Assembly: GCF_020745735.1 (NCBI RefSeq)
Contig: NC_083424.1
Span: 29,684,999 to 29,748,998, forward strand
DNA length: 64,000 nucleotides
Direction of reading: 5' to 3'
Origin: Hemiscyllium ocellatum
Taxonomy: Eukaryota
Shown here: positions 5,174-36,218 of the stretch, in pieces
Numbering within the stretch: position 1 is the stretch's first letter
Layout: each line of letters opens with the position of its first letter
Made by a program: the position numbers and the translations under genes
Notes under the pieces: model-generated
Told to the model about the DNA's origin: nothing
Seen by the model: only the letters and a program-made list of their open reading frames with translations
Database searches by the model: none

Positions 5174-5303
5174 ACGAACTTGACACCTCTTTTTCTTGGT
5201 GCTGATGTTGTTGCAAAAACTGGCATCCGCACTGAAAATCATCCAAGAATCCATGCAAGATTTGCAAAGAAAGGATTAGCAACCAAGCTCAGCTTTGGTG
5301 CAG
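5174..5303 (+). CDS. Uncharacterised gene, internal coding exon (TNLTPLFLGADVVAKTGIRTENHPRIHARFAKKGLATKLSFGA)
   Basis: Pyrimidine tract + cag|ACG acceptor and CAG|gtatt donor. 130 nt, open, and phase-compatible with the next exon. Confidence 0.8.
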
Positions 5304-6246
5304 GTATTATATTCATTTTCTTTTTAATGTAGCAATTAATTAACAAGGATATTCAAACAAATGTTTGCAAATCTGTGAGGAAAATGTTTCTTTAATGTTT
5401 TATAACTTCCTTCAGCTACATCCTGCTTCCAAGATAATTAAGGACGGTGAAGACTACTTAATCCAGTTTAGTTATCATTCCTATTTTGATGATCAGATAG
5501 ATCCTAAAGTTCTTCCATTGCTTCTTAACCAATTCTTCCTTGAATAATTTCATTCGGCTGTACCTTACCATTTGGATATCCAGTGCCTGTCGTGATCGTT
5601 CTTTGCACAAAAAAACTTTTAATATCAGTTCTGAAAATCCTTATATATCTTTATGTAAAATAATTTTTAGTTTTTCATAATTCAGATACCCTTTCATAAG
5701 AATTGACAGTGTGGTATTTTTCTCTTCCTTGTTTTATTTCCAGGCTTAAATGTCTCAATTTCTTTGTTTTACTGACAAGAACTTGACATAATACTCAGGA
5801 TCTGGTGCAACCAGACTGCTATACAGTTTGCTCATAACTTTCTTTGACATCTTAATGAACAAGATGGTCAGAGATTATCAGAGTAGGTGAGAATTTGTGG
5901 TTAAGGTCACAATCAGGTCAACCATGATCATACTGAATGGCAGAGCAGACTTGATGATACGAATGGCCTACCCTGTTCTAAATTTGTATGTTTGTATACT
6001 TGTAATTGGCTATTTTGTGACCAGCTTTTTACCACTTCTATATGTGGCATTGCCCTCACTGCTATCCTTGTGTTTTTTCAATGTTCTCCCTATTTCTGAT
6101 GATGGCCTCTGCTGTTATCTCCTTTGCAGTCATTCAAATCGGAAGGTTATCCATAAAAGAAAGTTAATTGCAGCCCCTTTCCATAATGGTTCTTCTGCAC
6201 TTCTCTTCTACGCATATTTATAATTTTTACAATTGTTTACTTTCAG

Positions 6247-6380
6247 AATTTCGATTTGAAGGACTGAAGGTACCAACTGTGGTGAACAATTTGTGGTTTT
6301 ACAGCATTCAGGGACTGTTTCAAGTTGCTTTTGAAATGTACACGAAAGACCAACAGTTAGAAGTCCTTGTTGTACTTCAG
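6247..6380 (+). CDS. Uncharacterised gene, penultimate coding exon (EFRFEGLKVPTVVNNLWFYSIQGLFQVAFEMYTKDQQLEVLVVLQ)
   Basis: ttttcag|AA acceptor and CAG|gtact donor. 134 nt, phase 1 in and phase 0 out, joins both neighbours in frame. Confidence 0.82.
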
Positions 6381-6835
6381 GTACTATTAGCGTTTGAAAA
6401 AAATATGTCATTTGTAAAAGATTTTTAAGTTATCGAATTATTCTGAGCTGAAAAGCACTATTTGGCATTATATATTTTCATGTATATGCACCTTAAAATG
6501 ATACCTCCTTCCCTATGTGCTCCATTAATTTGGATATTGCAATACAAAACTCTAGTATTTTACAATAATTAAAATGTTTTTTGATGACTTAATTAAAATG
6601 TTACTCCTAAACAAGTTCTGTGCAGGGAGATTATAGTACTGTAATACAACCCTGGAGGACCATTGTCCACAATTGTGGGTTTCGACTAATGAATGACATG
6701 TCTTGACAAATTGCTGAATTCCTAATTTACCTACATTGTCAAAGGATGTACTAAGCTCTGATGAAAATTAATGCAAGTTAGTTTTCAATCAACGAGGAAA
6801 GTTGATACTTTGGACTACTTTTTTTTTCTTTATAG

Positions 6836-7732
6836 GATTTGTGGAAAGCAAGGATAAATGACCCTAATCTGAATGAAAAGTATGATATTAAGATTCTGCA
6901 AAATTACCCTAAAGAAGGATTGCTTGAAAAACACACTCTTGAAATAAGTGACAACAGAAGTTATAATGCATTGCATTCAAGCATTCAAGGTGGTAATCCT
7001 GAACCTGATATCAATGTGTATAGGACAGCTGCTTCACCTTTGGATTCTACCCACAATAACATCATTGTTAATCAGGATGACCATAACTATTGTATGCAAG
7101 AAGAAAGAATTCTACTGGAAACTGAAAAACCTTGTGTGGATAACCAATTAAATGTGGAGGCTTTGGATTATGATTCTTTGTCTATTAGATTTAGATCAGT
7201 TTATCAGGCTTTTAAAGTTTTACCATTTCAAATACAAAAGGAACATGAGAAAACAATTACACAGTTGCTTGATTTTGTAGAACTCCTAATAAGTGAAAAT
7301 ATATCTGCACAGAAATTGGCTGATATGATGCTACAACTGCTGACACATCTTCAAGACATCATTGTCAAAACAGAAACCACTGCAACGGGAGCTAATTCTA
7401 TTTACTGTAGTCACATGCTTTATAGTGTAAGTAACTGGTTGGGACATCAATTTTATTCTGCTAATGGTTTGATCAGCAAGCAAGTAGAAGAGTTTAAAAC
7501 AACTCACATTGACAGAATCACAGACTTGCCACCTGCTGAGGATTTGGTAGATAAATTATTTCCTGAAGCAATGAAGGTTTTGCTGTTAAGCTGGATGGGG
7601 CTTGATGATAATTCTGCATTGTGGAAACGGCAAAGTGAATATCCAATTGTGCTGCTTATATTAGAGTTTGCTAATCATAATCTAATCACTGGTGTTGCTC
7701 ATGTATTGTATTCTAGTTTGATCTGTAAATAA
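6836..7732 (+). CDS. Uncharacterised gene, terminal coding exon (298 codons to TAA)
   Basis: Long poly-T tract + tatag|GAT acceptor, uninterrupted non-repeat ORF (longest in the window), AATAAA downstream at about 7813. Confidence 0.88.
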   Translation, partial: DLWKARINDPNLNEKYDIKILQNYPKEGLLEKHTLEISDNRSYNALHSSIQGGNPEPDINVYRTAASPLDSTHNNIIVNQDDHNYCMQEERILLETEKPCVDNQLNVEALDYDSLSIRFRSVYQAFKVLPFQIQKEHEKTITQLLDFVELLISENISAQKLADMMLQLLTHLQDIIVKTETTATGANSIYCSHMLYSVSNWLGHQFYSANGLISKQVEEFKTTHIDRITDLPPAEDLVDKLFPEAMKVLLLSWMGLDDNSALWKRQSEYPIVLLILEFANHNLITGVAHVLYSSLICK

Positions 7733-8392
7733 ATAGGAGGTTGAACAGTACTTAACCTAGATATTAATGCTTAAATTTAGATATATTTTGAAGATGTTAC
7801 GTGATGTTGAGCAATAAATAATTTCAGAATCTGCAAAGAGATTTGCAAATGTTATTTTTGCTAAATCTCAATTATCATGAACCTTGGTTTGTTATCAGGG
7901 ATGGATGGGGTAATCTGAGCAATGGACTAAGTCTGAGAGAAACAAGAAGCAGACACTAGTTGTCTGAAATAAAAACAGAAAATGTAGGAGACACACAGTG
8001 AGTGAAAAGGAGACAAGTTCACATATTGTGGATCTGGACCTTATTTGAATCTCCAAGTTAAAATGATGTGGATACTAAACTACAGATCTATCAAAGTATT
8101 CTATTGTCTGCAAAGAATCAATGTATCTATGAACTGCATCTTAAGTTTTGTCTTCTTATGTATGCATGAGTATCTTTATTTCTCATTAGTTTTTTTTCAT
8201 TTAAGATTAGAAAAGTAAATTAATAGGTAATGACCCCTATCTCTTCTCAATCTTTTCACTGATAACTGCTGATGTGACATCAGCCATCACAATTTCTCTA
8301 TTCCTCTTGCTCTGTCTAATCTGTCTACCTCTGAACTTGTTGCACTGTAATATTCATTCCTAACATTTTCATCCAATCTACTGACCAGAGTG

Positions 8393-13253: not shown

Positions 13254-13436
13254 TTAAATTGTGTCCATTCCTCTCATTGAAGAGGAGAAACCCAGGCCCA
13301 TTCCTCTTTGTGTGTGGGTCTGTGATCGTGCCATCTCATACTGCGCATCCAAGTTCCTAAATACTTCTTCCTGCTGTTTTAGAGTTTTGAAACTTTCATC
13401 AGGATTTGGTATTGGGGTTCCTACCTCTTCCTCATC
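13254..13436 (-). CDS. RSRC2: RSRC2 exon 10 (last): DEEEVG...KTLKQQEEVFRNLDAQYEMARSQTHTQRGMGLGFSSSMRGMDTI*
   Basis: Near identity to the remembered C-terminus of human RSRC2; ttttgcag|GAT acceptor; TAA stop. Confidence 0.96.
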   Translation of the reverse strand, partial: DEEEVGTPIPNPDESFKTLKQQEEVFRNLDAQYEMARSQTHTQRGMGLGFSSSMRGMDTI

Positions 13437-15218
13437 CTGCAAAATAATGAAATCAAATGACATGTCACACCAGATAATTAAGATCTCACAACATGCTTTC
13501 ACAGTTGCAAATTATGTCTGCCTTGTGGTTACATGCTTTCCCATCACATTTTCACAAGATCATAGGAAATAGGAGCAGCAGTTCAGTCAGCCCACTGCAA
13601 CTGCTCACTCTGCCATTCAGCAGCTTTGCAGTCACTCTTCTACCTCAATTCCAGTTTCCCATTCCACAATCTCCTATGTATCCAAAAATCTAATCGTCTC
13701 CTCCTTGAATATAATCAACAATTGAGCAAGCACAACCCTTAGGTGTGGAGAATCAAGGGTTTGCAACTTTGTTAACAAAGACACTTGTCAACTCGGCCCT
13801 GAAATGTCAACCCTAGTTTTGGAGCCTCCAATCAGGGAAAACAATCTCAAGCATCCACATTATCAAGCCCACCAAGAATTTTATTTTTAAATAAGATCGC
13901 CTCTTGTAATTGTGAATGTCAGAAACATGGGCGCATTCTACCTAACTTTTCATATGACAACCTGGTTTACCTGTTGGTTTAGAGAAGACTCATTTAGATC
14001 GGTTCCACTTCCCTCAATCTTATTCTTCAATATTTAGCTGACTCATTGACTAGGTGAAGTCAGTTGTGACAGCTGTATCAAATGCTGCTGTTACTGTTGA
14101 TAGCTTTTAAAACATGAACAAAAGCTGGTTGTTGTTGAAAGTGGAATTTTTCACTGTTAATAGCAGGCACTCAGTCTGATCCTTGGCTGAATACAGTATT
14201 ATTGAACAGCCACAAACATAAATTAAGAAATTATTTCTACAGGGTTTTTTTTCCACCAGTTGGCACCAGGATCTCATACTAAAAGCTGAACTTTGCTGGA
14301 GTATTATAATACACAAAAAGAGATAAGATGACCAAAAGCTTGATCAAAGTGGTAAGTACTAAGGAATGTGCTCCTGAAAACAAGAAAGGGAATTCAATAT
14401 AGAGTTCAGACAACTGAAGGTAAAGCCAATTATGTGGAGCAATTAAAATCAGAGATACTCAAGAGGTCAGAATTAGATAAGCATAAATATTACATGGAGC
14501 TGGAGCAGATTACAGACAAAGGGACCGCCAAGGTATGAAGGGATTTCATGATGATGGTGAGAATTTCAGATTAAAAATGTTGCTCACAGGAGCCAACAGA
14601 AGTTAGTGGGCTATGGTAATCAACAAATAAGACATGGTGCAAGACATGAGCGCCAAAATTTTGGATGACCATTGGTTTAAGGACTGTAGAATATCGATAT
14701 TGAAATTGTCAAGTCCACAGCGTACAAAGGGACAAATAAAGTTTTTAGCAGAATATGAGCTGAGACAGGAGCAAAGTTGAACAAGTGTAGGTGAAAGGTT
14801 GCCAAATTGTTTGGGCTGAGCTGAGGGGATCTTTGGACAGACAGCTAGGAATAATAATGCAGAAACAGAAAAAAGCCACTGCAAGTGTATGATGGACACA
14901 ATGACTATGGAACCAAGAAAGATTACGGATGGTCAACAATGTCAGCAAAGAGGCACTGGAAGAGAATGGTATTGTATACTGTCTTTGCCATGGTTGACAA
15001 GTCAAGACGACTAGGACAAGTCAGCTACATTGGATGTTCTTTGTGAATTTGACCAAAAAAAAAGATATTCTGAACTGTGGCAGGGTTAGATGTGAGAGAT
15101 TCAAATGAGTAATCCAGAAAGGATAGGTACATCATTTCATTCCAAAAGTGTTAATGTTTTATAAGAATCAAACTGCGATTTAAAAAAAAGTTTTCTATGA
15201 TTGCTGTTCTTAACTCAC

Positions 15219-15308
15219 CTTGATGCCCATTAATTTTCGGAATTTGACATTTTGGTCCTTGTTACCAAAATTCAATTTTTCCCATAATTCTGCAGTCTGC
15301 GACTTATC
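15219..15308 (-). CDS. RSRC2: RSRC2 exon 9: DKSQTAELWEKLNFGNKDQNVKFRKLMGIK
   Basis: 90 nt, aag|GAT acceptor, AAG|gtgagt donor, matches the RSRC2 SMAP-like domain. Confidence 0.95.
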
Positions 15309-15579
15309 CTTTAACAGAACACAAAAAGCATATGAAAATCCATTAAGTGCACCAAAATGACTTTGAGAAAGAAAACCACCAGTCACAAGTCTAAAAATGC
15401 ATTTTACAGAAAGGTGGAGTGTTCGTTGATAGACAGAAAAAGTAACAAAATTACAAATAGATAACTCGATCTTGTTTTGCTGCTGCTTACAATGATTCTG
15501 TGTTCAGCAGTGTGGTCTTAATGCCTACCATGATACTATTAAAGCCTAAACAAAACAAGTTTGTCTTATGTTGTCGTAT

Positions 15580-15675
15580 AGCTGAAAATGTGTTGCTGGA
15601 AAAGCGCAGCAGGTCAGGCAGCATCCAAGGAACAGGAGAATCGACGTTTCAGGCACAAGCCCTTCTTCAGGAATT
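15580..15675 (-). repeat. Penelope-derived repeat, family A, with intact minimal hammerhead core
   Basis: Minus strand reads ATTC-CTGAAGA-A-GGGC-TTGT-GCCT-GAAA-CG-TC-GATT, followed by the same tail as the PLE at 1205-1298. Confidence 0.8.
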
Positions 15676-16127
15676 ATGTTGCAGTATAACAAATTTATCA
15701 CAATGGCCGACGGTCACTTTCATGCAGGTCCCAGATATTTGAATTATTAACCTGCCACTATAAAAGTGCAAGGAACGTGGGCTTTCCTATTCTAACACCA
15801 GTTCTTCAATTTTTTAATATTACAATTTAATTTGATTTCTGGGACAATTTGCACTAACTGGCTAATAAAAGCTATTTATTTGTTCTGTATCTCAAACTCT
15901 TCTATAACACACTGATATTTACAGCAGAGACTTGTGAATCTCTGCTAGTCAAATTTAAAGCAAATGCCCAGTTATCTATCCATTATTTTGCATCATTCTC
16001 TATTTCAAGTATTTATCTATTTTTTTCCCTCAAAAATAAGCCTCTACTTCAACTATTTCCAGTGGCAAAACATGCCATGTTCCCAATAAATCGTTTCTTT
16101 TTGTAATATTTTAGAATTGTTCATTGT

Positions 16128-16810
16128 TCACTGAATCTCCCACTGTCAACATCCTTGGGGTTACCATTGACCAGAAACTCAACTCGACTCACCACATAAA
16201 CACAGTGGCTACAAGAGCGGGTCAGAGCCTAGGGATACTGCGGTGAGTAACTCATCTCCTGACACCCCAAAGTCTATCCACCATCTACAAGGCACAAGTC
16301 AGGAATGTGATGGAATACTCCCCATTTGCCTGGATAGATGCAGCTCCAACGACACAAGAAGCTTGATATCATCCTGGTCAAAGCAACCTGCTTGATTGGC
16401 ACCGTATCTACGAACACTCAATCCCTCCACCACCGGTGCTCAGTAGCAGCAGCGTGTACTATCTACAAGAAGCGCTGCAGAAATTCAACAAAAGTCCTTA
16501 GCACCTTCCAAATCCACGACCACTTCCATCTAGAAGGACAAGGGCAGCAGGTACTTGGGAGAACACCACCACCTGCAAGTTCCCCTCCAAGCCAGTCACA
16601 TTGTTGACTTGATAACTATACCACCGCTCCTTCACAGTGGTTGGGTCAAAATCCTGGAATTCCCTCCCTACTGACATTGTGGGTCAACCCACAGCAAGTG
16701 GACCGCAGTGATTCAAGGCAGCGGACCACCACCTTCTCAAGGGCAAATAGGGGTGGGCTATCAATGCTAGCCAGCCAGCGACAAAGTCCCACAAATGAAT
16801 TGAAAAAACA
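16128..16810 (+). mobile_element. LINE 3' fragment (CR1/L2 group, second family)
   Basis: Encodes ILGVTIDQKL and IYKAQVRNVMEYSP-like RT-thumb peptides; ends AATGAATTGAAAAAA. Confidence 0.7.
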
Positions 16811-16847
16811 ACTCTTCACTCTCTAACCCTACTTGATCTCCCATTGT

Positions 16848-17162
16848 GGGCGGCACGGTGGCACAGTGGTTAGCACTGCTGCTTCACAGCGCCTGAGACC
16901 CGGGTTCAATTCTCGACTCAGGCGACTGACTGTGTGGAGTTTGCACGTTCTCCCAGTGTCTGCGTGGGTTTCCTCCTGGTGCTCCGGTTTCCTCCCACAG
17001 TCCAAAGATGTGTGGGTCAGGTGAATTGGCCATGATAAATTGCCCGTAGTGTTAGGTAAGGGGTAAATGTAAGGGTAAGGGTGGGTTGCGCTTCAGCGGG
17101 TCGGTGTGGACTTGTTGGGCTGAAGGGCCTGTTTCCACACTGTAAGTAATCTAAAAAAAAAG
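16848..17162 (+). mobile_element. tRNA-derived V-domain SINE (HE1-like), full length
   Basis: A box TGGCACAGTGG, B box GGTTCAATTC, V-domain TGTGTGGAGTTTGCACGTTCTCCC...GGTTTCCTCCCACAGTCCAAAGA, CR1-like 3' end GAAGGGCCTGTTTCC, A tail. Confidence 0.9.
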
Positions 17163-19244
17163 GTCAACTGTTGTTCTGTATGAATTTATGACAACTACTT
17201 TACTACAATCTTTATAAAACCCCAGAATTCAATCTCCTACATTCTTCTATAGCCGAGACCCCAGCCTTTTCCTATTTTAAAGGCAGATATGAAGTGGATA
17301 TCCCAAGCATGATGCAGCTAGTCACACCACTCAGCTTTAAGCAAAAGAGAATTTATTTGAACACGACAGTTGAAACAAATAAAATAATTTAGAATAACTA
17401 AATTACTTGAAAACCCAACTGACTCGATATAGCAACTTAATTATATCAATTCCCATAATATACCAGAAACACAAAAGGCAAATTCAAACAGGTTTTTATA
17501 GGCAGGAGAGATTTCAGAGAGAAAGCTGATCAGTAGCCACATGCTGAAGCTTGGAACCTTTCTGCACTGCAGCAGTTTGTGACTGCCTGCTACAAGCAGC
17601 TGCTCTGTGACAACTAAAAAACTAGAAAAACCTGAAGTGGGAGAACTGACCACTCCCCTGCCAATGTTAAACAAGGCTCTTTCTCAGACACACCTACACC
17701 TCTGCCTTTATGATCTTTCTAACAAAAACCCAGGGACAAAACAACATGACTAAAGGGACAGCATTGTCACACTATCATATGCACCACTTCCAACTCTTCT
17801 CCAGTACAAGCAAAACTGTGTTACCCTCAGTTTTCCTTCTGTCAACCAACTTACTTTCATGACTAGGTTTGCTCCTAAACTGCGAGTGAATTCTCACAAG
17901 CCACTTAAGGCATCATATCAAACAACTTCTGAAAAGCCAATATGCATCAATGCTGCATTCCTTTTGTGGAGACAACTGAAATTCTTTAAAAGAAACAAAG
18001 ATCTTGCCTTTAACAAGTCAATGCCAAACATCCTGGTTTATCCTTTACTTCATTTTCCTAATTTTCACTTCCTACTGTAATGTTGTTATATTGCATGTTC
18101 AAGCTTCCATTAGTTCACACTTTTTCAGTACTGTCAGATGGTCACAATAAAATTGACTATTTTATGCTGATCTTCAGTATTTCCAGATTCTAAATACTCT
18201 TCGCCCCTTGCAATTTCATGAGACAATTGGTGAGAAAATGCAATGTAAAAACGCACACCATTATGGTTCATTTCTTTGAGTCTAAAATTTTGCAGAACAC
18301 AAAAAAAAACTGCCAACTAAGCATTGAAAAGTAGGGAATTTATGCTAAACCCTGCTAAACCTTGGTAGACCCAACTTAAGAGTACCGCAAAAAGTTCTGA
18401 TTGTCACATTATTAAAAGGACACAGAGGCACTTGAGAGAGTGCAAAGATGATCTAAGCGTGGTAACCAACCAGTTGTGTATATATGGAAAGGGTTGACAC
18501 TGTCTTTTTCCCCTCTTGAAATATGAAGTGACTGAGGAGTGACTAGGTTTTGATGCAGGAACTTCAAAAGGGAATATTTGCGCTTGCAGGGAACAGCATA
18601 ACCAGAGGCCATTAATATAAGGCTGTTACCAAGAACTCAAATAAAGAGTTCAGAAGAGTTGCAAGAATGTGGAACCTGCTGCCACCTTTGGTAGAATCAC
18701 AGAATTCCTACAGTGCGGAAGCAGGCCATTCAGCTCATCGGGTCTTGACTTGAAATGCTCCCCGCCCATCTTGTTCAGATAACCGAGGTTGTTCTATAAT
18801 AGGTCTTCAAACCAGATTTCATATTCAGATGGGAAACAGGAGCCCTGATGTGAGAAACATTATGGAGTTTTTATTTTCAAAATTCTTCATTCAGAGACTG
18901 CACTTCTTACAAGGCACTCAACAACTGCCACATCTAGCATATTGCATAATAAAAAAATTACAACTTTGGTTCAGAGACTGTTGCTTGGCAACCTTCAGCA
19001 CAAAACTAAGGTTTTGTTTGTTTCTTTGTGCAACAACGAATCCAAAACTCAATCCCTTCATTATTCTTAAAAGCTTTGCTGGACATGCAATCCAGAATGC
19101 AATTTGACTTTGTAAACAGCAGATAAACTATGTTTTCTTTAAACCCTTCTCCCACAGTACAAATGCAAAGTTCCAGTTTCCCTTTACTCAAAAAGATTTA
19201 TGTATTTCTAACATGATATACATGGCAATAATTTTTCCAAGGCA

Positions 19245-20340
19245 TACAAATGCACAGCATGGAAATCAGACCCCTTAGCCTAACTCTTCCATGCTGACCA
19301 GCTATCCCTAATAAGTGTAGTCCCATTTACAAGCATTTGGCCCACATTCCTATAAACCCTCCGTATTCATATACCCATCGAGATGCCTTTTAAATGTTAT
19401 CATTGTATCAGCCTCCACCACTTCCTCTGGCAGCTTATTGCATATGCTGCGTGAAAAAGTTGCCCCTTAGGTCCTTTTTAAATCTTTTCCCCCCTCATTT
19501 TTAACCTGTGGCCTCAGTTTTAGACTCCCCCACCCCAGGGAAAGGACCATGTCTATTCACCCTATTCACGCCCCTCATGATTATATAAATTTCTAGAAGG
19601 TCACCCCTCAGTCTCTGACACTCCAGGGAAAGTAGCCCCAGCCTATTCAGCCTCTCCCTATAACTCAAACCCTGCAACATCCTTGTAAATCTTTGCTGAA
19701 CTCTTTCGCAACATTCTTTCTGTAGCAGGGAGACCAGCACTGCACACAATATCCAATAGTGGCCTAATCAATGTCTTGTACAGCTGCACTATGACCCCCC
19801 AAGTCCTATACTCAATAAAGGCAAGCGTACCAAACACCTCCTTCACTATAATATCTTGCTGAAACTATCAGCACTCCAAGGTCACTTTGTTCAGCAACTC
19901 TGTCCAGGACCTTACCATTAAGTGTATATGTCATGCCCTGATTTGCCTTTCCAAAATGAACCACCTGACATTTATCTAAATTAAACTCCACCTGCCACTC
20001 CTCAGCCCTTTACCCATCTGATCAAGATCCCGTTGTATTCTTCGCTGTCCACTACACCTCCAATTTTGGTGTCATCCGCAAACGTACTAACGATACCTAT
20101 GTTCACATCTGTGACTATCGATGATACAAATATCTCAGCAAGGGACCCAGCATTCACTTCCCCCAGAGTTTTAGGGTACACCTGATCAGGTCCCAGGGAT
20201 TTATTCACCTTTATGAGTTTTAAGACATCCAGAACACCCTCCTCTGTAATATGGACATTTTCCAAGATGTTGCTATGCATTTCCCCACATTCTCCATCTT
20301 CCATACTCTTCTCCACAGTAAACACTGTTGCAAAATACTC
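19245..20340 (-). mobile_element. CR1 LINE fragment(s)
   Basis: Minus ORFs with KSLGPDQVYP, FADDTKIGG and ERVQQRFTRML. Confidence 0.88.
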
Positions 20341-20436
20341 AAAAAAAAAGGGGAAAAGAAAGAACAAGGGGAAAAGGCAAGAACATGCTGGTGCCAAACT
20401 ATCTAATCTGTGTATGGGATAGACAATAGTCATTTA

Positions 20437-20593
20437 CAGAGGAACCTCGATTATCTGAAGGACATGTGTGGGGAGTATTTCGTTCAATTAATCAAATGCC
20501 GGATAACAGTGTAGCCAAGCACTAGGACCTTGCAATCTTACCAGATAATCTGAAATTTGGATAATCGAATGCTGGATAATCAAGGTTCCTCTG
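20437..20593. mobile_element. Tc1/mariner-pogo type MITE (157 bp)
   Basis: TIRs CAGAGGAACCTCGATTATC / GATAATCAAGGTTCCTCTG (1 mismatch in 19), with TA on both sides (20435-20436, 20594-20595). Confidence 0.85.
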
Positions 20594-22108
20594 TATAATA
20601 CTCACAGAACCCTGGTACCCACAGAGACATCCAAAGTGTGGAGGGAGTGTACATTCTATGAAAGTCGTAACACCTAATGGAACACACTGGGGATAAACAG
20701 AAGCCAAATCTGGGAACACTTCAAAGTTACGTTCACATAATGAAGGAGTAGAAGACCATCCTAACAGATGACTTATCGTGCAAGAGATCAACATACGTAC
20801 AAGTCGAGAACAAAAAAGTGTGAAGTCTAGATCTTCAGTAGGTTGAACTATCACAAGGTTCAGAAGGATTATACAGACTCTTCAACTTGAACTCAAAGTT
20901 TTCAATTCTTGTTTTTAAATCAGCATTTTCTGCAACTGCTTTAATGTATACATATTTTCACAGTTGGTGCATACAATTTTATTTGGGGGGGGGGGGGGGG
21001 GGGAAGAAGGTGGTGGAAAAATGGGAATGATGTACTTTCGGAGGCAAGTATGCTCATGAGTTAAGGACCAGGAAGTCACTGTATAGCAGCAACCAAGACG
21101 ACTCCAACAGCAGTGTGATGGATTAACGACGTGTAACCAGTTGCTCCATAATTGCAGTTGTTTGTTTGTCTATTCATTTGAAGTCCCCTGTTTGGGACTT
21201 CCAAATAAATTGAGCATACGCAGCTTACCAATCCTGTATGTTCAGGAAAACAACACAAGAATACAAAAATTTTCATCCATTTGTTTTCTCCAATTACTTT
21301 TTATTGTCTATGAACTTCCTGATTGATAGAGTCTCACCGTTTTCTGAATATCTAATCAATACCCGAACTATCCAATGTATATTGGAATTAAATTTAATGC
21401 TTTTCTATCTACTATTAAATATATGTAACCTTATGCTGTAGAATCAGCACTCATTATATTGCTGTGTTGCCATTTAGAAAGTTGAATGCTTCAGGTGTTG
21501 TCTACTTCAATCTTCTTTTCACCAGTAAAAGATATATTTCTCAACTTAGCACCGCCTTCTAATAGCTCAGGTGGCTCATTCCAGTCATCATTTGATCAGC
21601 TTTCAAGTGTTGCTTACAGTCTCATTCAATTCGGTAATAGTTGCAAGCCTGGAATTCTAAAGCTTCAACCTTCTCCAGATAACAGATACACGACGCAAGA
21701 GAATTCAACTTAAAATTAAATCTTGTTTGAATAACATTTTTACCTGGTGTAGCAATACCTGCTACTGCAGTCACATTTTCTGACACAGGATTTGGAAGCT
21801 TTAGCCAAATTAGAAAATATGAATTGGAGAAACGCTGTGATCACATAAAGCAACAAGATTTCAAAAGGATTAAGGGTTTTTTAAAAAGAAGATTTAAAAG
21901 TTGAGCAATGTTTTAAAAGTCAAAAGAAAATGGAAAAAGAAATGAATCCATAAAGCTAGGTGGATGGTGAAGGTAGCATAAGGGTTAGGGGAATTGGATG
22001 AAGAAAAGGAACCTGTTTATAAAAAATGTGTAACATTAATTAAAATTGATAAAGAAGTCTGGTGTAACAATGTCAGTGCAACACTGACATGGCTAATAGT
22101 AAACTCAC

Positions 22109-22332
22109 CCCCTCTTTCTTGTTCTGCCAGAGAAGTTTGCGTTTCTTCTCTTGCTCTGCAAACTTCATTGGGTTGACAGCAGTTGGATTGTAGTAACTGG
22201 GCACAGCTATACCGGTTTCAGCCAATGCCTTCGCTTGGAGTGCTGCCATCTGTGCAGCCATTGCAATTTGAGGAGTAACTTGAGTACCGGATGCCAGGAG
22301 AGCAGCAACGTTGAGAACTGATCCACCACTAA
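22109..22332 (-). CDS. RSRC2: RSRC2 exon 8: VSGGSVLNVAALLASGTQVTPQIAMAAQMAALQAKALAETGIAVPSYYNPTAVNPMKFAEQEKKRKLLWQNKKEG
   Basis: Near identity to RSRC2; aacag|TT acceptor, GGG|gtgagt donor; 224 nt. Confidence 0.96.
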
Positions 22333-22394
22333 CTGTTAAGACATCAGAAATACAATTATGTATATTAGCTCAGCATAAATACCTGGATGTACCA

Positions 22395-22603
22395 AAGTTT
22401 AAAGAAAAAACACCATACCACGTTACAGTCCAACAGGTTTATCTGTAAGCACTAGCTTTCAGAGCGCTGCTCCTTCATCAGATGGTGATGAAGGAGCAGT
22501 GCTCTGAAAGCTAGTGCTTCCAGTTAAACCTGTTGGACTACAACCTGGCATGGTATGATTTTTAACTTTGTACACCCCAGTCCAACACCAGCATCTCCAA
22601 ATC
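22395..22603. repeat. Inverted pair of Penelope-derived family B repeats (hairpin centred near 22483)
   Basis: Arms of about 90 bp are reverse complements; each carries TGATGAAGGAGCAG(C/T)GCTCTGAAAGCTAGTG. Confidence 0.85.
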
Positions 22604-25522
22604 CGGATACATCAAGTAGACTGAGTGCGATCAAGAGGCAAAGTCAGAGTGACTGCTCCTTAGATCAAGTATTCTTGATCAAGCCATCTTCTGGTGCTTC
22701 ACCAATAATCTTCACCATTAGAGATAACATTTGATGATTTCAGAATATTCAGCTCCATTCATAATTCTTCACAAAATGAAGCAATCTATGCCAACTGGGA
22801 CTACATCCAGGTCTGGGCTTAAAAATGACAATTTTAATTCTGACTGCTTTTCCTGACAGTTAATGGCACTGTCACCAATACATTCCCTCTCAGTGAAGTG
22901 TGACTTTACTACTTCTCAGAAACTGAACTCTACCAGCCATATAAATAGCGTATTTAAAAGAACATTTCTGGAACTGTGAATTCTGCAGCGAGCAGATCAT
23001 CTGCAAGTCCCTCAGCAACAAGGTGTGTGATGCAATACTCTCCCCCCTTACTTGAATTGGTAAAGCAACAACAATGCTCAAGTTGCTTGGCAACATTAAG
23101 GAGATCAGTCACTCAATTTGACTGGTATCCTATTCACTAGTCTAATCATCTGTTCCTTCTACATGTGACATATTGCAGTGTGACATGCATTATCTACATG
23201 TCACACTGCAATATTATGCTCTATTTCCCACAATAGCAACAAGCAAAAGTTCATGTCTGCAACAGACATGGACAGCACATAGACCCAAACAGTACCACAT
23301 CTAAATCTCGAACAATCAAATTTAGATATGAATTTCTGCTCCTTCAGGACATCAAAACCAACACAGCAGTGCAGAAGCACATTCAGTGTCATCCTGACAT
23401 TCCTGAGTCAACTAGACACTTGTGGCAAGTGCTGGCTATGGCCTTGACACTTACAACTTGAGAATGAAATAAGCAATGGAATTCAGACATGCATGTGCAC
23501 AAACAATTCAAAACTACTTCAAAAGGAACAAAAAGGCTAATGGAATATTAGCTTTTAATTCAAAGGAGTTTAGAATCAAAAATAAATTGTTTGATGCTTT
23601 AGTATACAAAACCTCATTGACCCAAAATGGAATATGGCAGTCAATTACAGGTACCAAACGGAGAAAAAGATATACTGATCTTACAAGTATGTGTAGCTCA
23701 GATACAACAACTTATATGGGGTTTTAAAGGATTAAATTGAAAGAATAGGTTACATTGACTTGGTTGGTATTCTAAATTTAGAAAGTTGATAAATAACTTA
23801 TGTTTGTATTTTTATCTTAAATTATTCAAATGGGGAATTCAGAAGGGAGGTAATCTTCAAGTTGGAAACTGGCAGCATCAGGATTAATCAACAGCTGCAG
23901 ATAGAACTGGTTGAGAGGAGTACTGGGGACCACTGACAAGTATTTCTGTTCTGCGATCTAACAATAAGATCCTTGCAAGTCAACAATGTGATTGGGAAAG
24001 TGCATTAAGGTAATGTCTCAAATCAACTGTGCAAAAATAAGACACCCTTCGTATGTAATTTTAATTTATTTTTGTTTAAAGGAAAACAGGGGCACTAGCA
24101 TAGACTAGTTTAGGGTAGCTATGCCGATCCACCCAACAGCCCTGACACTAAATCTGAACTGATCATGGTCCAAACTACCTGTCCTGAAAACCATAAATAT
24201 CCAAATTCCGTTACAACCTTGACTCCAAAGTTGCCACATCTGAGGTACTTGTACTTTGAAAATGATGAAATATTAAGTTTTCCTACCTGTTGGCTGGTTG
24301 ACACTTCCTAGTGATCCATTAGTTGTATCTATTGAAAATAAATACAGCTTTTTTTTTCATACTATTCAACCAGTCGCTGTTATGCAAAGTTCAGTGTGAA
24401 ATATGACTGTCATTACTGCTTTGAATGCACACTGCAGTTCTTGACATCTGTGGCACCCATGTAATAATTAGAGGAACATCATGATTCTAATAATAAAGAG
24501 CCAGACTTATTTCTTCAATTACCACTTACTTCTTTTGTTTCACATAACCACAGAATTGTCAAATGTCTACAACTTAATTGCAAGTGTTCACAGTCTTTAA
24601 ATTTTCCAACTTTCAAATGTTACCTTTGTTTTTGGAAAAAAGGAGACTGTAAAACCAATATTAAACAATCAAATAATTTACTACAGGGTGACCACCCCCA
24701 TATCTGCAAGTCCTGTTATGGCAGCCCGAACATAATACAGGGAACATTCCAGAACGAGGGACCAGAATGCTGCTGGGAAGGTAAATTTCCCATTGAAATG
24801 AATGGGTTCGCTCCTTTCTGTGGTAAGTTTTGGAACATGTCCCCCGTGGGTATGGGGGAGTGGTGAATTAATGTATTACACTTTAAATCAAGAAGTCCTT
24901 CCTATTACTCTCAGGCCACCTATTTATTACATTTCTTAAATATTAACCACCACAAAATCAGATGCTGTTCAACTGTGTTTTTAAAAATCAAGTGATCAAC
25001 AGTTGCCTATCAAATGATTGTAGCAACTTTTAAACATAATGCAACAAATATACCAAAACATTGACAGGAATAATTGTACATTCTCTTTCCCCCATCCTTG
25101 TTTGAAAAAATGTGTCTTGCACAAAAAAAAAGCCCACTTCAGAGTTGAAGGTCATTTCTCATTTGCTTTCTGTAATCCCAATTCCAAAACTGATTTGCAA
25201 TTCCAATGATGTCCAAGTACCGTGACAGGTTTTTGCAGAAAAGCCATTTGCTACCTAACTTCCTGGAAGCCACAGGCACACTTCAGAGACAGGATTTCAT
25301 TTAGATTGTGAAGCCTACAAATGCAAGGGAATTTTGCTTTCTGGTTTCCAGCATACTACGGAGGTAAAGTAACTGGTTTAAAGAGTCAATTTTTGAAGTG
25401 AAGTTGGAAGTGCTTCGTTGCAGCTAGATTTCAAAGCTTTGCATTTATCTCCATAATTTAGTTGCTACTTCCATTAGTTCTACAAACCTTAAAATTAGCA
25501 GATATTGTAATACTTTAATTAC

Positions 25523-25605
25523 CTGCAACATCTGTTTGCTCCACTTTCTGTTTCTCTAGTAGTTCTTTCTCTTTTTGCTCTTGAAGCTTCTTTGCTCTTT
25601 CAAGT
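25523..25605 (-). CDS. RSRC2: RSRC2 exon 7: LERAKKLQEQKEKELLEKQKVEQTDVA
   Basis: cacag|A acceptor, CAG|gtaatt donor; 83 nt; matches the RSRC2 coiled coil. Confidence 0.94.
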
Positions 25606-25769
25606 CTGTGATTCAAACAATAACAAGTTACTAAATACGGAGCAAAAGACTCTGACTTCAAATGTACCTAGATTTTAATCTTTAGTCTCTCACTATAGTC
25701 TTTCATAGTCATTGCTGCATGCTTCAAATAAGGCTTCGCACAAAGTTTATAAGATCACAAGACACAGGG

Positions 25770-26075
25770 ATAGACTGAATGCACTGTCTTTTTCCTAGGG
25801 ACAAAAGGGCATCGGTTTAAGATTAGAGGGGAAAGAATAAAAGAGAACCTGGGGGGGCAACTTTACGCATATGGAAGGAGCTGCCAGAGTAAGTGGTTGA
25901 GGTAGGTTCAGTATCAACATTTAAAAGGCCTTTGGACAAATACACGCAGAGGAAAAGTTTAGAAGGATATGGGCCCAAGTGCAGGGAAATTAGGTTAAGC
26001 AAGGACAGACATTTTGGATAGCATGAACCAATTTAAGCCAAAGGGCCTGTTTCCATGCTGTAGGACTCTTTGACA
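25770..26075 (+). mobile_element. CR1 3' end fragment
   Basis: GGAGCTGCCAGAG..., TTTAAAAGGC and AAGGGCCTGTTTCCATGCTGTA match the CR1 3' end. Confidence 0.75.
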
Positions 26076-26737
26076 TCTAACTGTAAGACAGCTCACAATC
26101 TATACACCGCTTCCTCTGGCCAGAAGGAAACAACAATCAATGCTAATTGAATAATATCCAGATGTAGTTTAAAAATAAGACATCTCCAAATCAAGAGCAA
26201 CAAGAGGAGAAATCTCTTCTGAGGATCAGTAATTTTTGGAACTTCCTTCCCCAGATAAATATATTCAACGAATTCAGTGTTAAGGACAAATTCAACTGAT
26301 TTTTGATCAGCAAGGGTGTGGAGGGTTTTGTGAGGTCAACAGGAAAATGGCATAATAATAGCACCATTATCGGTTCAGCTATGACTTTACTGAATGGTGC
26401 GGCAGGGAAGTGGGGTCAAATGGATTGATCTAATACATATTTTTTTTACAATCTAGTAGCTTTGTTCGTTCCCCTACACAAACCTGCCAAATGAAAATCA
26501 AACATAATTATTCAGTAGCACAATGAGCCCTCTAACTTACAATTAAATACAGAAAATACTGGTTTCAGCAGTTTGTTTCTATTTCATATCTCCAGCATTA
26601 ACAGTTGTTTTTCCCCCTCGCTACTTACTTTCATATTTTAAAGCAAAAACAAACCTCAGAATATTACAGGACTGCACTGAACCAAAAAAAACCTCAAAAC
26701 CAAGATGGACTGATGAAAAATAAGGAAGAGAAATTAC

Positions 26738-26845
26738 CTTCGGGCCAACGCTTCCTGAGCATCCATAGCAGCATTGCGACCCCTGAATGCTGGAGGCGTT
26801 CGACTCCGACTTCTGCTTCTACTGAACTTGCGTTTTCTTTTTTCT
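26738..26845 (-). CDS. RSRC2: RSRC2 exon 6: EKRKRKFSRSRSRSRTPPAFRGRNAAMDAQEALARR
   Basis: ttgcag|A acceptor, AAG|gtaatt donor; 108 nt; FRGRN.AMDAQEALARR is diagnostic. Confidence 0.95.
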
Positions 26846-27143
26846 CTGCAATATAAATCTTCATTTATGATTTTATTCAAGAGAGGAGTGTATCAAAATG
26901 AAAATACATTAAAAAACCGAAAGAACTGTGGATGCTGTAAATCAGAAACAAGGACTCAAAACTTGTTGAAAAAGTTCTTACATGCCTCAGCATATACAAG
27001 AAACACTCAAAAGTAAAAAGCTAAAGGATTAACTTTCTTAAGGTAACACATTAACTAGAAGATGAGTTTAACGTGAAAATATTTTAGTTTGAAAAGGAAA
27101 TAGACAATGTTTTATAATACAAAGTGGAGGCAAAGGGACTCAC

Positions 27144-27512
27144 TTGCTTCGGCTTCGACTTCTGTGCACCCTGTGCCTTGATCTTGACCGAGATTTTAGG
27201 CGTCGTTTTTTTTCTCTGCTTCTTGAACGCCTGCCCCGGCTCCTCGAACGCCTGCCCCGGCTCCTTGACCGCCTGATCCGGCTCCTGGAGCGCCTGCCCC
27301 GGCTCCTTGAGCGCCTGCCCCGGCTCCTTGAGCGCCTGCCCCGGCTCCTGGAACGCCTGTCCCGGCTTCGAGACCGCTTGTCCCGGCTCCTTGAATGCCT
27401 GTCCCAGCTCCTTGAGCGCTTGTCTCTGCTTTTTGATCGCCTCTCTCGACTCCGAGACCTCTTTTCTCTGCTCCGTGAACGTGACCTCTTCTTTTCACGA
27501 CTCCGATGTCGC
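27144..27512 (-). CDS. RSRC2: RSRC2 exon 5 (RS domain with heptad repeat expansion)
   Basis: ttatag|G acceptor, CAA|gtgagt donor; 369 nt; RHRSREKKRSRSRSREK... Confidence 0.93.
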
Positions 27513-27812
27513 CTATAAATTAGGAACAATATATACACAGGATTACAAAGATAATCAGTCACATGTTAAAATAATCCCAACTGAATAGAATTAGGCATTT
27601 GCTCAACTGCAACATTTGACTAAGACATCTATTTTAATTTAAGTTTTAAAAGAAGCTCAAAACAGCAGTCAGCTCGATTTAAGTAAAGAGGAATTACTTT
27701 TCAATACCTTGCCGTAGAAAAGTGGTCAAGATATTGTCCCAATCAAACCACAAAACACGTTGAAAATTTATTTGAACTCAAAAATATATACATTAAAATT
27801 ATTAATACTGGC

Positions 27813-28003
27813 CTCTCCCTGGACCTGGATCTTGAATAACTGTGTGCTTTTGACGATTTTTTGTCTTTCCGTTTTGGTCTATCTTCTCCATTTTCTGTTG
27901 AACTTAATCGCTCCCTCCCTTTGTCATGCTCCTTGTCACTTTGTTGATCAGAAGATTTTTGTTTTTTGCTGGTACTTCTTTCTTTTATTTCGCGTCTTTG
28001 TTC
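27813..28003 (-). CDS. RSRC2: RSRC2 exon 4: EQRREIKERS...DKGRERLSSTENGEDRPKRK...SRSRSRE
   Basis: aaacag|GAA acceptor; DKGRERL.S.ENGEDR matches RSRC2; 191 nt if the GC donor AG|gccagt is used. Confidence 0.9.
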
Positions 28004-30015
28004 CTGTTTTAAGAAGAAGTTGGTTCTTTCAGGAAAATAGTGCAACAAAGAGAGTTAGTATGGGTAGAAAATACAAAGATTTAATAGTGGGTTGTAAAAG
28101 CAACAATTCTTTGAATGTCTTAGAAGAAGTGAAGTAATAAGCTATCAACATTCAGTGCTTTTTACAACACACCAAACCCAAGAAATAGTAATCAAAAAGT
28201 GTACACTGATACACAGTCAAGGGGTGGAATAATCTACTTGCTTTCCAATAATTAGCCATAAATAACTATTCTATAGGCATGAGACTCATCACTCTACATC
28301 ATCTACTGCCAACACAAAGAACCTCTCCAGCTACACTCAAACCAAAATGAACTTATTTGAATCAAAGACCATTTGTCTTACAAAATTTTCAAATGTGAGT
28401 CACTATACACGTATTTTTCATATAATAGGCACACTGCGCTCAATCCAACTTTGTTATTTATCACATTAGTGACTAAATCTATTTGTATGAAAGTTTCAAA
28501 GACTTCAATTTCAATTGCAAGGCACTATTCAGGTCCTTTCAACTCTCAACACAAGGTAAAACCAAAACACCAATCATAATGCAAATTAGTTACACTTTCA
28601 AGATCTGACCCAAACTCAGTGATATGCATATCTTAAAAACTGTACCTTTCCCACAAATGCTCCTTCCTGTGTACAGTTCCTTGCACTTTACAACTTGGGC
28701 AATCTCAGACTATCACCAACTAATTCTAACCAAGTATTTTTAATTTTGCGAGACCAGTACAAGTGGATGTTTGGGTCAAACGACTAATATCAAAATAAAG
28801 CCAAGCTCTTACAGGAAAAGTGAAAAGGGCTAACTGGGATGCATCAAATGATGCAAATACTAGCCAAAAGATAATGATCTTATGACTGAATTCAAGAAGT
28901 TCAACTTTTCCACTTCTAATGGAAACATATCAATCCTATGCAAGATATCCTCCACATTGAGAAAGAATGATTAATCATGGAACAATTCACAGGGAATAAA
29001 CTTGCCTATCTTCTCGGTGATCATGTCTACTAAGCTTTTTCCTTCAATTAAACAAATTCAAACTATGTTGTTAGATGCTTAAATCCACCAGCAATTTAGA
29101 AAATGACTCAAAAGAATGTTGCACATCCAACTTTCATGCAACTATAATGTTTAAAAAGAATGCTGGTGATTAATTTAAACAACTAGTTGCCATAGAATAT
29201 TTTAGAATTCTAAATCATTTTGTGGTAGCCAATAATCACTCTTCCAAAAATATTTCAGTCCGTAATCAAGAAGTCCAAACACCAACTGTCTATGACAGTA
29301 AAAACCTCACCTCAGTGAAGTTATTTAACAAAGTGCTGATACAAATATTTTGTAAAGATTTTGATATGGCCAAATGTAAACATTTTCAATTTCTACACAT
29401 ACATACACAAAATCACAGGCACACTGAACTTTTACGTCAAAAAACCTACCCATTTGGCGCCTGGTTGGTGGTGGAAAGAACATTCACAAGTTATGTGTTA
29501 TGCATTTAAGCATTAAGTCATTGGAACATGCAAAGGTACTTATGAACATTTTATTTTTTCCAGACCTCAGCATGTTTTTATTAACTACAATTTTGTTATA
29601 TCTATTAGGTATCAGACCTGAAATCAGATTATAATTACAAGCTGAACTCAGTGCCAGCAATGATACTGCGAAAACATACTGCGGCATTTGAAGCAAGAAT
29701 GCCAGCAAGAGTTTTAATGAGCAAGGGTGAAACAAAGTTAGTACCGGGCTAAAGCCCATCAAAATACTAAATATCCAATAATTAGGACATAATTTACAAA
29801 GCAGCATTTATAAAAGGTTGGTCAGTCCTTTGAATTATGCAAAAATCAAATTGAAATATTTGGACATTATCTTATTCAATGTAGTTTGCAGGGAAGAAAA
29901 CGCCTCCTCTCCAAACCAAATTGAATTGACAATTGACTACCACAAACAAAGCAGATTTGCTGGGTGATTCTTTCAAGTTACAAAGCAAATACGAGTGTGA
30001 ATGGCTGATATTTAC

Positions 30016-30098
30016 CTTTTCAGGAGGTAGGCTTATATTTTTTGCTATTTGACTCTGCAGCGTCTTCTGCTCACTGTGTCTCTTCGTGCATTAGCACG
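30016..30098 (-). other. RSRC2: Candidate alternative poison (PTC) exon of RSRC2, 83 nt
   Basis: tactcag|CGT acceptor, AAG|gtaaat donor, in-frame TAG at 30047-30045, GAAGA enhancer-like motifs; resembles my recollection of the human RSRC2 alternative exon. Confidence 0.7.
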
Positions 30099-30461
30099 CT
30101 GAGTACGATTCATTATAGAAATGTTATCATGTGATCTATGTATACAAAGTAAACTTTCCAAACACAAAAATGCCAAAAATCTGTATTGATACCCTCCTAA
30201 ATTGTAATAACTAAATATTAAAATATTTGGTCAATTTTAACCTATTTAATATACTATTCTAATTAGAACTGGGAAGAAAACATTTATAGTCATCTGCTTA
30301 GGTAGGATACAATACTTTGTCATGACAGCTAAGCAATTTTACTTTTGTCTAACAAACTTTGGTACTTACCATCCTGACTGTCAGTACTCAATAAATAAAT
30401 TGTCAGCAGCACAACATTTAGTTCTTAAATTAATTTATATTCTACAGAAAGTATTAATTAC

Positions 30462-30508
30462 CTCTTTGCTTCTGCTGCGACTTTGCCTGGATCTCCGGCT
30501 TTCACTTT
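30462..30508 (-). CDS. RSRC2: RSRC2 exon 3: ESESRRSRQSRSRSKE
   Basis: ttttccag|AA acceptor, GAG|gtaatt donor; 47 nt; phases fit exons 2 and 4. Confidence 0.9.
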
Positions 30509-31600
30509 CTGGAAAATGAAAAACTACTACATGAACAAACTCAGTTGCAAAGAAAACCATGAGCCTATTTATCCATGCATTGTATAATTTTTAAAAATGT
30601 CAGAAAGATCCAGAACAACTGGTCACAAATTCATTTAAGTTCATCAATTCAATCCAGTTTTCAATATGTAATTTAGATATAATTTTGCAACTTGGAGAGT
30701 CGCAAAATTGTCAGTAACCATTACATCAAAAACAACTTCAAACCAAGTTAGATGCTGATCTAACGAATGAGTAATATTCTGACACCCAACCTAAAAATTT
30801 CGAATGCAGCAGAAATATCGACTAATTACTTAACGATTGTCCAATATTCCAGACAAGCAAATAAACTATAGTGTGCAACTAAAATATACTAGTTGCTTTT
30901 ATAAAGGCAGTAACAACGACTCATGCAGCAAATATTTATCAGTAGTTTCATTTTAAGTAGCCTTTTAAGAAATAGAATGGCACTGCTCTTGGATATGGTT
31001 TATAACATCATGGTGTATAACTCTTACTACTAATTTATCTATTTCTCTGTTATATCTGCAGGATCCTTACCTTCAAATATATTAACTATAAAATGCAAAA
31101 ATGTTTTAGCTTCAACTGGAATTTCTCATTTACAGCATTAGACAAAGTGCTCTATTAAAATTTATTGTAGGCAAATGTTCTATGGCTAATAATCCAAATG
31201 AAAACATCCTACATCATTCTCAAACTCAAGATTGCTGCAGCTCTAAAATTATACTATTTAGAAGGCCAATGTGTGCCAACACGTAGTATTCACAATATCC
31301 TGATTTTAGGCTACTTGTCATGACAAGAGCAAAGGAAATCACGTATGTGTTGTGAGAAAAAAGTAAATTGATCCATGATGTCTCTGTACAACTCTAATGC
31401 AATGTTACTCTAGAAATCCAAGAAGAAATCAGCTCCCCTATTAAGTAATGTCAGGAAGTAAGGCCACCTAAATAAGAATATTGTTGGGTGAAAACTGTCA
31501 ACCCTCAAATTGTAACAATTATTCTCCAAGTCAAACTGGAGACTGTAATACCAACATAAAGGTTTAGAATCTTATACGTCAATAGAAACAATGTACACAC

Positions 31601-31961
31601 CAGACTTCCGTTTCTTCTCCCTTGATCTTGATCTCGACCGAGATTGTTTCTTCTCCACAGACCTTGATCTCGACCTGGACCGTTTCTTCTCCACAGATCT
31701 TGACCTTGACCGAGACTGTTTCTTCTCCCTAGATCTTGATCTTGATTGAGACTGTTTTGTGTCCCTGGATCTCGATCTGGTTCGAGACCGTTTCTTCTCC
31801 CTAGATCTTGACCTTGACCGAGATCGAGACCGAGACAGAGATTGGGAAGAACGGTGCTTGTAGCTTTTGGGAGATTTAGACGTTGTCAATCGCTCGCTTT
31901 TCTTTTCTGTGTCTGAAGCAGATTTTTTCAACACCAGCCCATCCTGTTCAGCATCACTTGC
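31601..31961 (-). CDS. RSRC2: RSRC2 exon 2 (ASDAEQDGL... with extra SR decamer repeats)
   Basis: caacag|GCA acceptor, CTG|gtgtgt donor; 361 nt; ASD.E.DGL start and RKS end match RSRC2 exon 2. Confidence 0.9.
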
Positions 31962-35582: not shown

Positions 35583-36083
35583 AAATTTAAAGCGAGGCGA
35601 GCTATGAATTTAGTTAAAGTTATTAAGTGATTTATTATGCACAATACTACGTTTTGTGAATCGAATACAAACTCCAAGGCCTAATATCCAACAAGGCTAG
35701 AGCTCTAGTCGGTTCTTCAATCTAACAACATGATCCACTGGGCTGAGAAGATCCTTTCGATGCCAAATACACCTCATCATTAGATTTTTCACATGTTAAG
35801 TACATAAAGCTAATGGAAATAGTACAAGTCGTAGAATCTGACAGCCCTTCCGCTAAAAATGATGTGCACAATAAACGAACTTAGAACGCAGTGTCTCATC
35901 ATCACATTTCTTCAACACAGCAGCCAGTGGCTTAACTATGTTATCAAGAAAAGATGCATAAAGCAAAATCGGATTATCTAATAATATTAAACGAGCGACT
36001 GTTAACCTGACATGATGTGAAAAGGGTTTCATAATGATGTCGTCTATATTGAAAGAGACGAATGTTCCAGAAAAAAATATTTC

Positions 36084-36107
36084 CAAGATGGCGCCTACCG
36101 CCATTTT
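36084..36107. promoter_or_regulatory. Two oppositely oriented YY1-type motifs in RSRC2 intron 1
   Basis: CAAGATGGCG (36084-36093) and CCGCCATTTT (36098-36107), about 110 nt downstream of exon 1 in transcript direction. Confidence 0.55.
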
Positions 36108-36212
36108 CTACTCAATGACCGTGCCACCGTACCGTCGTGCAGGCCTCCGAAAAACCCCGAATTTATCACATAAACGGGGAAACATCAATGTTATTTATTT
36201 GAGAATACTCAC

Positions 36213-36218
36213 CGCCAT
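36213..36218 (-). CDS. RSRC2: RSRC2 exon 1 coding part (ATG GCG, MA)
   Basis: ATGGCG|gtgagt in a CpG-rich island; splicing to exon 2 gives MAASD, the known RSRC2 N-terminus. Confidence 0.9.

Follow-up and report, generated by a model that had tools for sequence, protein, structure and literature searches.

The window (that is, the whole stretch of 64,000 nucleotides of Hemiscyllium ocellatum DNA analysed here) carries the coding sequence for residues 42-427 of a 427-residue protein (database protein P0003), encoded by a gene for which a genome search found four exons and no second copy. The protein, which was found in a search with the open frame at 6836-7729 and is identical to that frame, is the ortholog of zebrafish si:ch211-110p13.9; both full-length similarity to this ortholog group and single copy were found for the shark gene. 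As listed in Table 1, three of the coding exons lie in the window, with residue 85 spanning the joint between exons 2 and 3. Introns 2 and 3 were both skipped at GT..AG in contigs of two of the four sequencing runs (X1 and X2, which are runs from related organisms and whose RNA status is guessed), while runs X12 and X21 cover the gene in part only. At the 3' end, contigs stop at 7816 and 7834, and an A-run follows 7837 in three reads of run X21. The original prediction, which was limited to 5174..6380, comprised exons 2 and 3 only, with the first and last coding exons outside it; both of its exon peptides were nevertheless present at the limits it gave, with AG/GT ends and identity to P0003, and its description of an uncharacterised, intron-containing host gene was borne out. 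In one X2 contig, exon 3 was skipped (5303-6836), a frameshift that would truncate the protein inside the N-terminal domain (hereafter designated N-domain). Intron 2 contains a short repeat (5912-5956) that attracts many unrelated contigs.

Table 1. Positions of the shark si:ch211-110p13.9 ortholog, its protein features and its neighbours (window coordinates unless a contig or locus is named).
Feature	Position	Strand	Remarks
Coding exon 1	about 4.6 kb upstream of the window; shark contig C59 from 29680365		genome search
Coding exon 2	5174..5303	+	130 nt, AG acceptor/GT donor; residues 42-84; PLFLGADV strand-helix motif and basic second helix; matches P0003; splice joint in contigs
Motif 1, PLFLGADV (residues 46-53)	5186..5209	+	aligns with Bro-N WF.A.DV motif
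Presumed recognition helix and wing start (N63, R66, H68, R70, K73, G75, K79)	5237..5287	+	helix in model; putative DNA contact
Intron 2, phase 1	5304..6246	+	position and phase common to bilaterian-like loci L158, L160-L162
Coding exon 3	6247..6380	+	134 nt, AG/GT; residues 86-129; wing strand, then motif 2 and the helices after it
Motif 2, WFYSIQGLF (residues 101-109)	6294..6320	+	aligns with Bro-N I.E.GLY motif
Intron 3, phase 0	6381..6835	+	position common to L158, L160-L162
Last coding exon (exon 4)	6836..7732	+	residues 130-427 and stop, 100% identical to P0003; N-domain end, disordered linker, helical C-terminal part
DHNY (residues 211-214)	7079..7090	+	matches HCF-1-binding consensus [DE]HxY in disordered linker; putative binding site
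Conserved helical C-terminal region (residues 322-427)	7412..7729	+	low model confidence
Short 3' UTR	7733..7837	+	likely poly(A) site near 7837
PSP-domain gene	L004:701-889; shark contig C59:29658556-29658681	-	head to head with the shark ortholog
RS-rich multi-exon gene with SMAP domain	13257-32051	-	tail to tail with the shark ortholog

The PSP-domain gene, which we take to be ZCCHC8, has its start on the opposite strand, about 610 bases ahead of the shark ortholog's start codon, and the CpG-rich stretch between the two genes is likely a shared promoter. The RS-rich neighbour, presumably RSRC2, has long RS repeats in two frames (27140-27565 and 31572-32051). In the available part of one report, ZCCHC8 and RSRC2 are both placed at human 12q24.31 (PMC2873396). 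A 154-codon frame on the plus strand (36016-36480), giving no Pfam match, lies near the likely start of the RS-rich gene, and pieces of retroelements were recognised by eye at 173-1296, at 43276-43869 and in other long frames (reverse-transcriptase-like and esterase-like).

The named matches of two word-based searches (best 120 of 373 and best 120 of 192) come from cartilaginous fish, bony fish, coelacanth, lungfish and amphibians, with no amniote among the matches listed, which suggests that the gene was lost in amniotes. In a profile search, 194 matches were obtained at E 0.001, 178 of them below 1e-10; thus, the family is a discrete one with few weak members. An organism is named for 21 of the 30 representatives looked up, and all 21 are animals. 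The named relatives include a sponge, Trichoplax, Nematostella, a jellyfish, molluscs, a brachiopod, nemerteans, a bryozoan, myriapods, echinoderms, a hemichordate and amphioxus, so that the gene, previously labelled a vertebrate one, belongs to a family spanning the animals. Pattern-based scans, which are of low sensitivity, yielded no relative in viral contigs and none in prokaryotes beyond one locus with the motif (L133), which was dismissed as chance because its frame is closed by stops just upstream. A Pfam search found no model that covers the family, and in a literature search the zebrafish name si:ch211-110p13.9 occurred in no paper and the family was not found described. In one of 58 scanned homologs (P0217, from a crinoid), a THAP domain is fused before the N-domain, which may be a gene-model fusion.

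The full-length model consists of a confidently predicted N-domain (residues ~7-150), a disordered linker (residues 155-239; pLDDT below 50) and a helical C-terminal part of falling confidence. Folded alone with an alignment of 46 diverse sequences, the N-domain reached a pLDDT of 92 and a pTM of 0.88. Motif 1 is strongly conserved among these sequences, with D52 in all 46, L47 and F48 in 44 each, and L49 in 43, and the invariant residues of the 46 homologs are D52, H68, Y103, G107 and F113. The conservation of the two motifs across homologs this diverse shows that they are not due to chance. The conserved C-terminal region matched nothing in Pfam or PDB, and the full-length model revealed no clear fold counterpart for it.

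The N-domain is predicted to have the fold of the winged-helix group that includes Bro-N, APSES, Dachshund/SKI and SMARCB1. In the comparison with solved structures, 41 of 48,161 PDB chains reached Z 2, and 12 of the best 13 rows were winged-helix domains. The best match was granulovirus Orf22 (Z 6.2, rmsd 4.5, 99 aligned residues), tied with the other three of the four best, and Mbp1 (Z 5.7, rmsd 3.3, 89 aligned), Dachshund (Z 5.5, rmsd 3.6, 92 aligned) and SKIL (Z 4.8-5.4) also ranked high, as did SMARCB1 (Z 3.0-3.3). Further rows among the best were Bqt4, Swi6 and DdrC, which we group with the winged-helix domains, and BCOR was also matched. With this tool a Z of 8 marks a distinctive match, whereas a Z under 8, such as the best value here, can reflect a common arrangement; the argument for the fold rests on the coherence of the match list and not on the height of the score. 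In the available text of PMC4509781, Dachshund/SKI, INI1, BCOR and Mbp1 are grouped by structure. Among predicted viral structures searched with Foldseek, the best 50 rows contained 34 named proteins, namely 25 Bro, 6 repressor-domain or antirepressor and 3 other proteins, and none named KilA-N; the probability was up to 1.00 and TM 0.32-0.47, with E values of 1.3e-3 at best to 4e-2, none reaching 0.001. In a search of the ESM Atlas, which serves as a lead only, the sole Pfam-named row was a Bro-N cluster with a score of 0.86. From these models, the N-domain appears to be a family of its own within the fold group, nearest to Bro-N among the viral structures.

At the sequence level, the N-domain is slightly nearer to Bro-N than to SKI/DACH and resembles Bro-N in fold and motif order, but it fails the Bro-N profile. 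Pfam Bro-N (PF02498) matched none of the 46 isolated N-domains, none of 58 whole proteins and nothing in the shark genome, with 55 of 55 phage Bro-N stretches recognised as a positive control; KilA-N/APSES (PF04383) and SKI/SNO/DAC (PF02437) likewise matched 0 of the 46. In profile-profile comparisons with two phage Bro-N alignments, each of which was selected by one motif and so favours a match at that motif, the score was 16 with the first set (the 55 stretches that Pfam recognised; probability 1.2%, 6 of 60 shuffles as high) and 20.4 with the second (66 of 118 sequences kept after near-duplicate removal; probability 5%, 1 of 60 column shuffles as high). Eight shark SKI/DACH-family domains gave a score of 13.8 (probability 0.5%, 9 of 60 shuffles as high), the positive control gave a probability of 100%, and in a global HH alignment Bro-N did not outscore the shuffles. 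In the second-set alignment, both motifs (F.A.DV and GLY.L) lie in order and in register with those of Bro-N, at strand-helix junctions in the model. The original prediction of a Bro-N/KilA-like domain, made from motifs picked by eye, holds for the predicted fold, with Bro accounting for 25 of the 34 named viral matches, and for the motif register; family membership does not follow, given the negative result of the proposed Pfam check against PF02498 and PF04383, the HH probability of 1-5% and the tie with Mbp1 and Dachshund. Searches of Pfam, PHROG, NCBIfam and PDB sequences revealed no credible family. The phage protein YomS (E 0.02, 32 residues), which is absent from the fold matches, and phrog_27434 (8 of 46 sequences, best E 0.011) each cover motif 2 only and were set aside as chance.

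With Bro-N, which is known from baculovirus BRO proteins and phage antirepressors, the N-domain would share the predicted fold, and it shares the N-terminal position and the motifs F.[AG].DV and GL[YF] in register. It differs in its length (about 145 residues versus the 96 positions of the Bro-N model), in its second helix (N..R.H.[RK]..K.G) and in being joined to an unrelated C-terminal part; moreover, Bro-N is encoded by viruses, prophages and mobile elements, whereas the shark gene is a single copy with introns among host genes. The best solved match, the N-terminal domain of Orf22 (PDB 4YE7), has only 7% identity and belongs to a viral envelope protein, which we take to be a PEP protein. 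A fold common to PEP and Bro-f is described in the accessible part of a preprint (bioRxiv 10.1101/2025.06.19.660566). The APSES/KilA-N domains of Mbp1, Swi6 and PCG2 score similarly in the structural comparison (Z 5.5-5.7, rmsd 3.2-3.6) and likewise have a basic second helix, but identity is 7-9%, no Pfam match was obtained, ankyrin repeats are missing and the present family was found in animals only. Dachshund/SKI and SMARCB1/PHF10 are animal nuclear proteins with a winged-helix fold like the predicted one (Z 3.0-5.5), and they differ in the lack of profile similarity, a shorter aligned range and other C-terminal domains.

The second helix of the N-domain offers a candidate DNA-binding surface. 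Lys or Arg occupies positions 66, 70, 73, 79 and 87 in 100, 93, 85, 100 and 85% of the 46 sequences, respectively, N63 is found in 43 and H68 in all 46, and this basic helix is more conserved than its surroundings. To judge from their spacing (63, 66, 70 and 73), the helix residues are probably surface-exposed. In the part of PMC4509781 available, the same helix enters the major groove in Mbp1 orthologs and is the one that binds DNA in Mbp1 and INI1. By analogy with these two proteins, N63, R66, R70 and K73 would lie in the major groove, and the wing (K79 and R87) would contact the minor groove or the backbone. On the model and this analogy, the N-domain likely binds DNA.

Apart from DHNYC at residues 211-215, little of the linker is conserved. 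As stated in the accessible portion of a preprint, the consensus for HCF-1 binding is [DE]HxY within disordered regions, 66 of 347 human [DE]HxY peptides bound HCF-1 in a screen, and the binding rules favour a small x, an uncharged residue at Y+1, no Pro at Y+2 and a hydrophobic residue at H-4 (bioRxiv 10.64898/2026.03.19.712392). The shark motif has the small x, the uncharged Y+1 and no Pro at Y+2, and lacks the preferred hydrophobic residue at H-4. The consensus is present in 155 of 165 complete vertebrate homologs (shuffle mean 7.8, maximum 17 in 1000), a count inflated by kinship since one rearranged control motif, apparently a conserved site elsewhere, reached 73 of 165 in vertebrates; most of the rearranged controls scored 0-10. 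Among 119 more distant sequences with both C-terminal blocks, it is present in 57 (shuffle mean 4.7, maximum 14), and its position there is the loop between the two C-terminal blocks (55 of 57), compared with the linker in vertebrates. A small middle residue is found in 224 of 226 motifs, the residue after the motif is Cys in 153 of 156 vertebrate cases, and 16 of the 70 motifs in the more distant sequences have Pro at Y+2. Nine of 17 named bilaterian invertebrates have the motif and eight do not; all four named non-bilaterian proteins lack it, and it would thus have been added later to a two-domain protein that already existed. In P0210, P0221, P0233 and P0316, of which P0210 and P0233 are myriapod proteins, 4-5 copies of [DE]HxY occur in one loop.

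HCF Kelch genes were found on three shark contigs (C18, C54 and C216); mammals have two HCF-type Kelch genes, one fewer than the shark. A complex prediction of the bamboo-shark HCF-1 Kelch domain with residues 196-230, made without alignments by a tool unproven on peptides, scored 0.02. From the motif, the protein likely recruits the co-regulator HCF-1: the linker would dock to the Kelch domain and so bring in HCF-1-associated chromatin modifiers. THAP transcription factors are built from an N-terminal DNA-binding domain, a disordered linker and C-terminal helices, and the shark protein, with DHxY in its linker, is laid out in the same way. The HCF-1-binding DHxY motif of THAP11 is described in the portion of the preprint cited above (bioRxiv 10.64898/2026.03.19.712392). 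The DNA-binding domains are nonetheless unrelated, and a THAP domain is present in only one of the 58 scanned homologs.

A metagenome scan gave 14 loci of the family, which fall into intronless cnidarian-like and three-intron bilaterian-like forms when one locus with a frame change (L159) is left out. In nine loci (L149-L157), the whole protein is encoded by one open frame without introns, the nearest named protein being that of Nematostella in eight and, narrowly ahead, that of amphioxus in one; three of the nine are clearly genomic, in that a splice donor closes the adjacent tektin exon at one and the same position. Introns at the shark places and phases are present, within the reach of the contigs, in the four loci whose closest proteins come from an echinoderm, mollusc or myriapod (L158 and L160-L162). 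The sponge protein called on a 1.9-Mb contig equals the RefSeq protein minus three residues, which hints that the sponge gene is also intronless. The simplest reading is that the ancestral gene was intronless and that three introns were gained in early bilaterians. L152, L154 and L155 also carry a long intronless AAA ATPase frame.

Collectively, we consider it somewhat probable, at a little under 60%, that the protein acts in the nucleus as a DNA-binding regulator, with a winged-helix domain of Bro-N-like type and, in many bilaterians, a docking motif for HCF-1. It would likely work in the nucleus, the N-domain likely binding DNA and DHxY likely docking HCF-1, and the conserved C-terminal helices may bind a partner or a second copy. 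Against this regulator stand the best Z of 6.2, below 8, the failure of every profile to find any family of the fold, and the use of the fold for purposes other than DNA binding, as in the PEP fold in what is available of bioRxiv 10.1101/2025.06.19.660566 and in the BCOR rows among the structural matches. An alternative that concerns origin, and is compatible with the DNA-binding regulator, is that the N-domain is a genuine Bro-N domain which the ancestor of animals acquired from a DNA virus or a Polinton and kept as a host regulator; this is possible though doubtful. The dominance of Bro proteins in the viral fold list, the register of both motifs at a score reached by 1 of 60 shuffles and the restriction of all 21 named relatives to animals speak for it, as does the intronless frame of the nine cnidarian-like loci; domesticated genes start intronless according to the available part of PMC3670739, and some Polintons carry Bro-N according to that of PMC12721341. 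An intronless ancestral gene fits capture from a virus or mobile element, but a retrocopy or intron loss would yield the same structure. Moreover, none of 46 domains matches Pfam Bro-N, 6 of 60 shuffles equal the score with the first Bro-N set, both sets were selected by motif, the solved host domains tie with the viral one, and the insensitive pattern scans found no viral or prokaryotic relative. The domestication from a virus that had been proposed would be consistent with the intronless loci, and no viral relative was found for it in those scans.

A different ancestry, from a host winged helix of the Dachshund/SKI, SMARCB1/PHF10 or BCOR type, would mean that the domain mainly mediates protein contacts within a chromatin complex and binds DNA weakly, or not at all, in a sequence-specific way. 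Dachshund, SKIL and SMARCB1 do stand near the top of the structural matches, the group consists of metazoan chromatin-associated domains, and DNA binding of INI1 is weak and non-specific in the text available from PMC4509781. We nevertheless regard this ancestry as unlikely, as profile similarity to the eight shark SKI/DACH domains is lacking, the alignment reaches model residue 126-132 along Orf22 and Mbp1 and only 114 along Dachshund or SKI, and conservation is higher in the basic helix than around it. It is more improbable still that the likeness of fold is coincidental and that the protein works outside the nucleus, for example in cilia, with another task for DHxY. The middling Z values, a flagellar doublet chain matched at Z 3.6 and a tektin-like frame that starts upstream on the other strand in eight of the nine cnidarian-like loci would suit such a role, whereas two fold libraries and the language-model search agree on the fold group, the shark neighbours are not ciliary genes, and a motif recurring at different disordered places is typical of docking motifs.

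New here are the [DE]HxY motif in this family and the difference between intronless cnidarian-like and three-intron bilaterian-like loci. A fuller history, in which a Bro-N was captured intronless when animals arose, its source being a DNA virus or Polinton, three introns and the HCF-1 motif were gained in bilaterians, and the resulting transcription regulator went unrecognised and was lost in amniotes, is offered as a speculative and rather doubtful one. Fungal APSES factors are a precedent for a viral domain turned host regulator, to which this history, if true, would be the animal counterpart; titles and abstract starts in a literature search gave no report of an animal host regulator taken from a DNA virus in this way. 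A family that is conserved from sponges to amphibians and lacks a Pfam model is now given a predicted fold, a candidate surface for DNA binding and a candidate partner, and the winged-helix regulators of animals would gain a new family. If the Bro-N origin is true, a DNA virus would have supplied animals with a transcription regulator when they arose.
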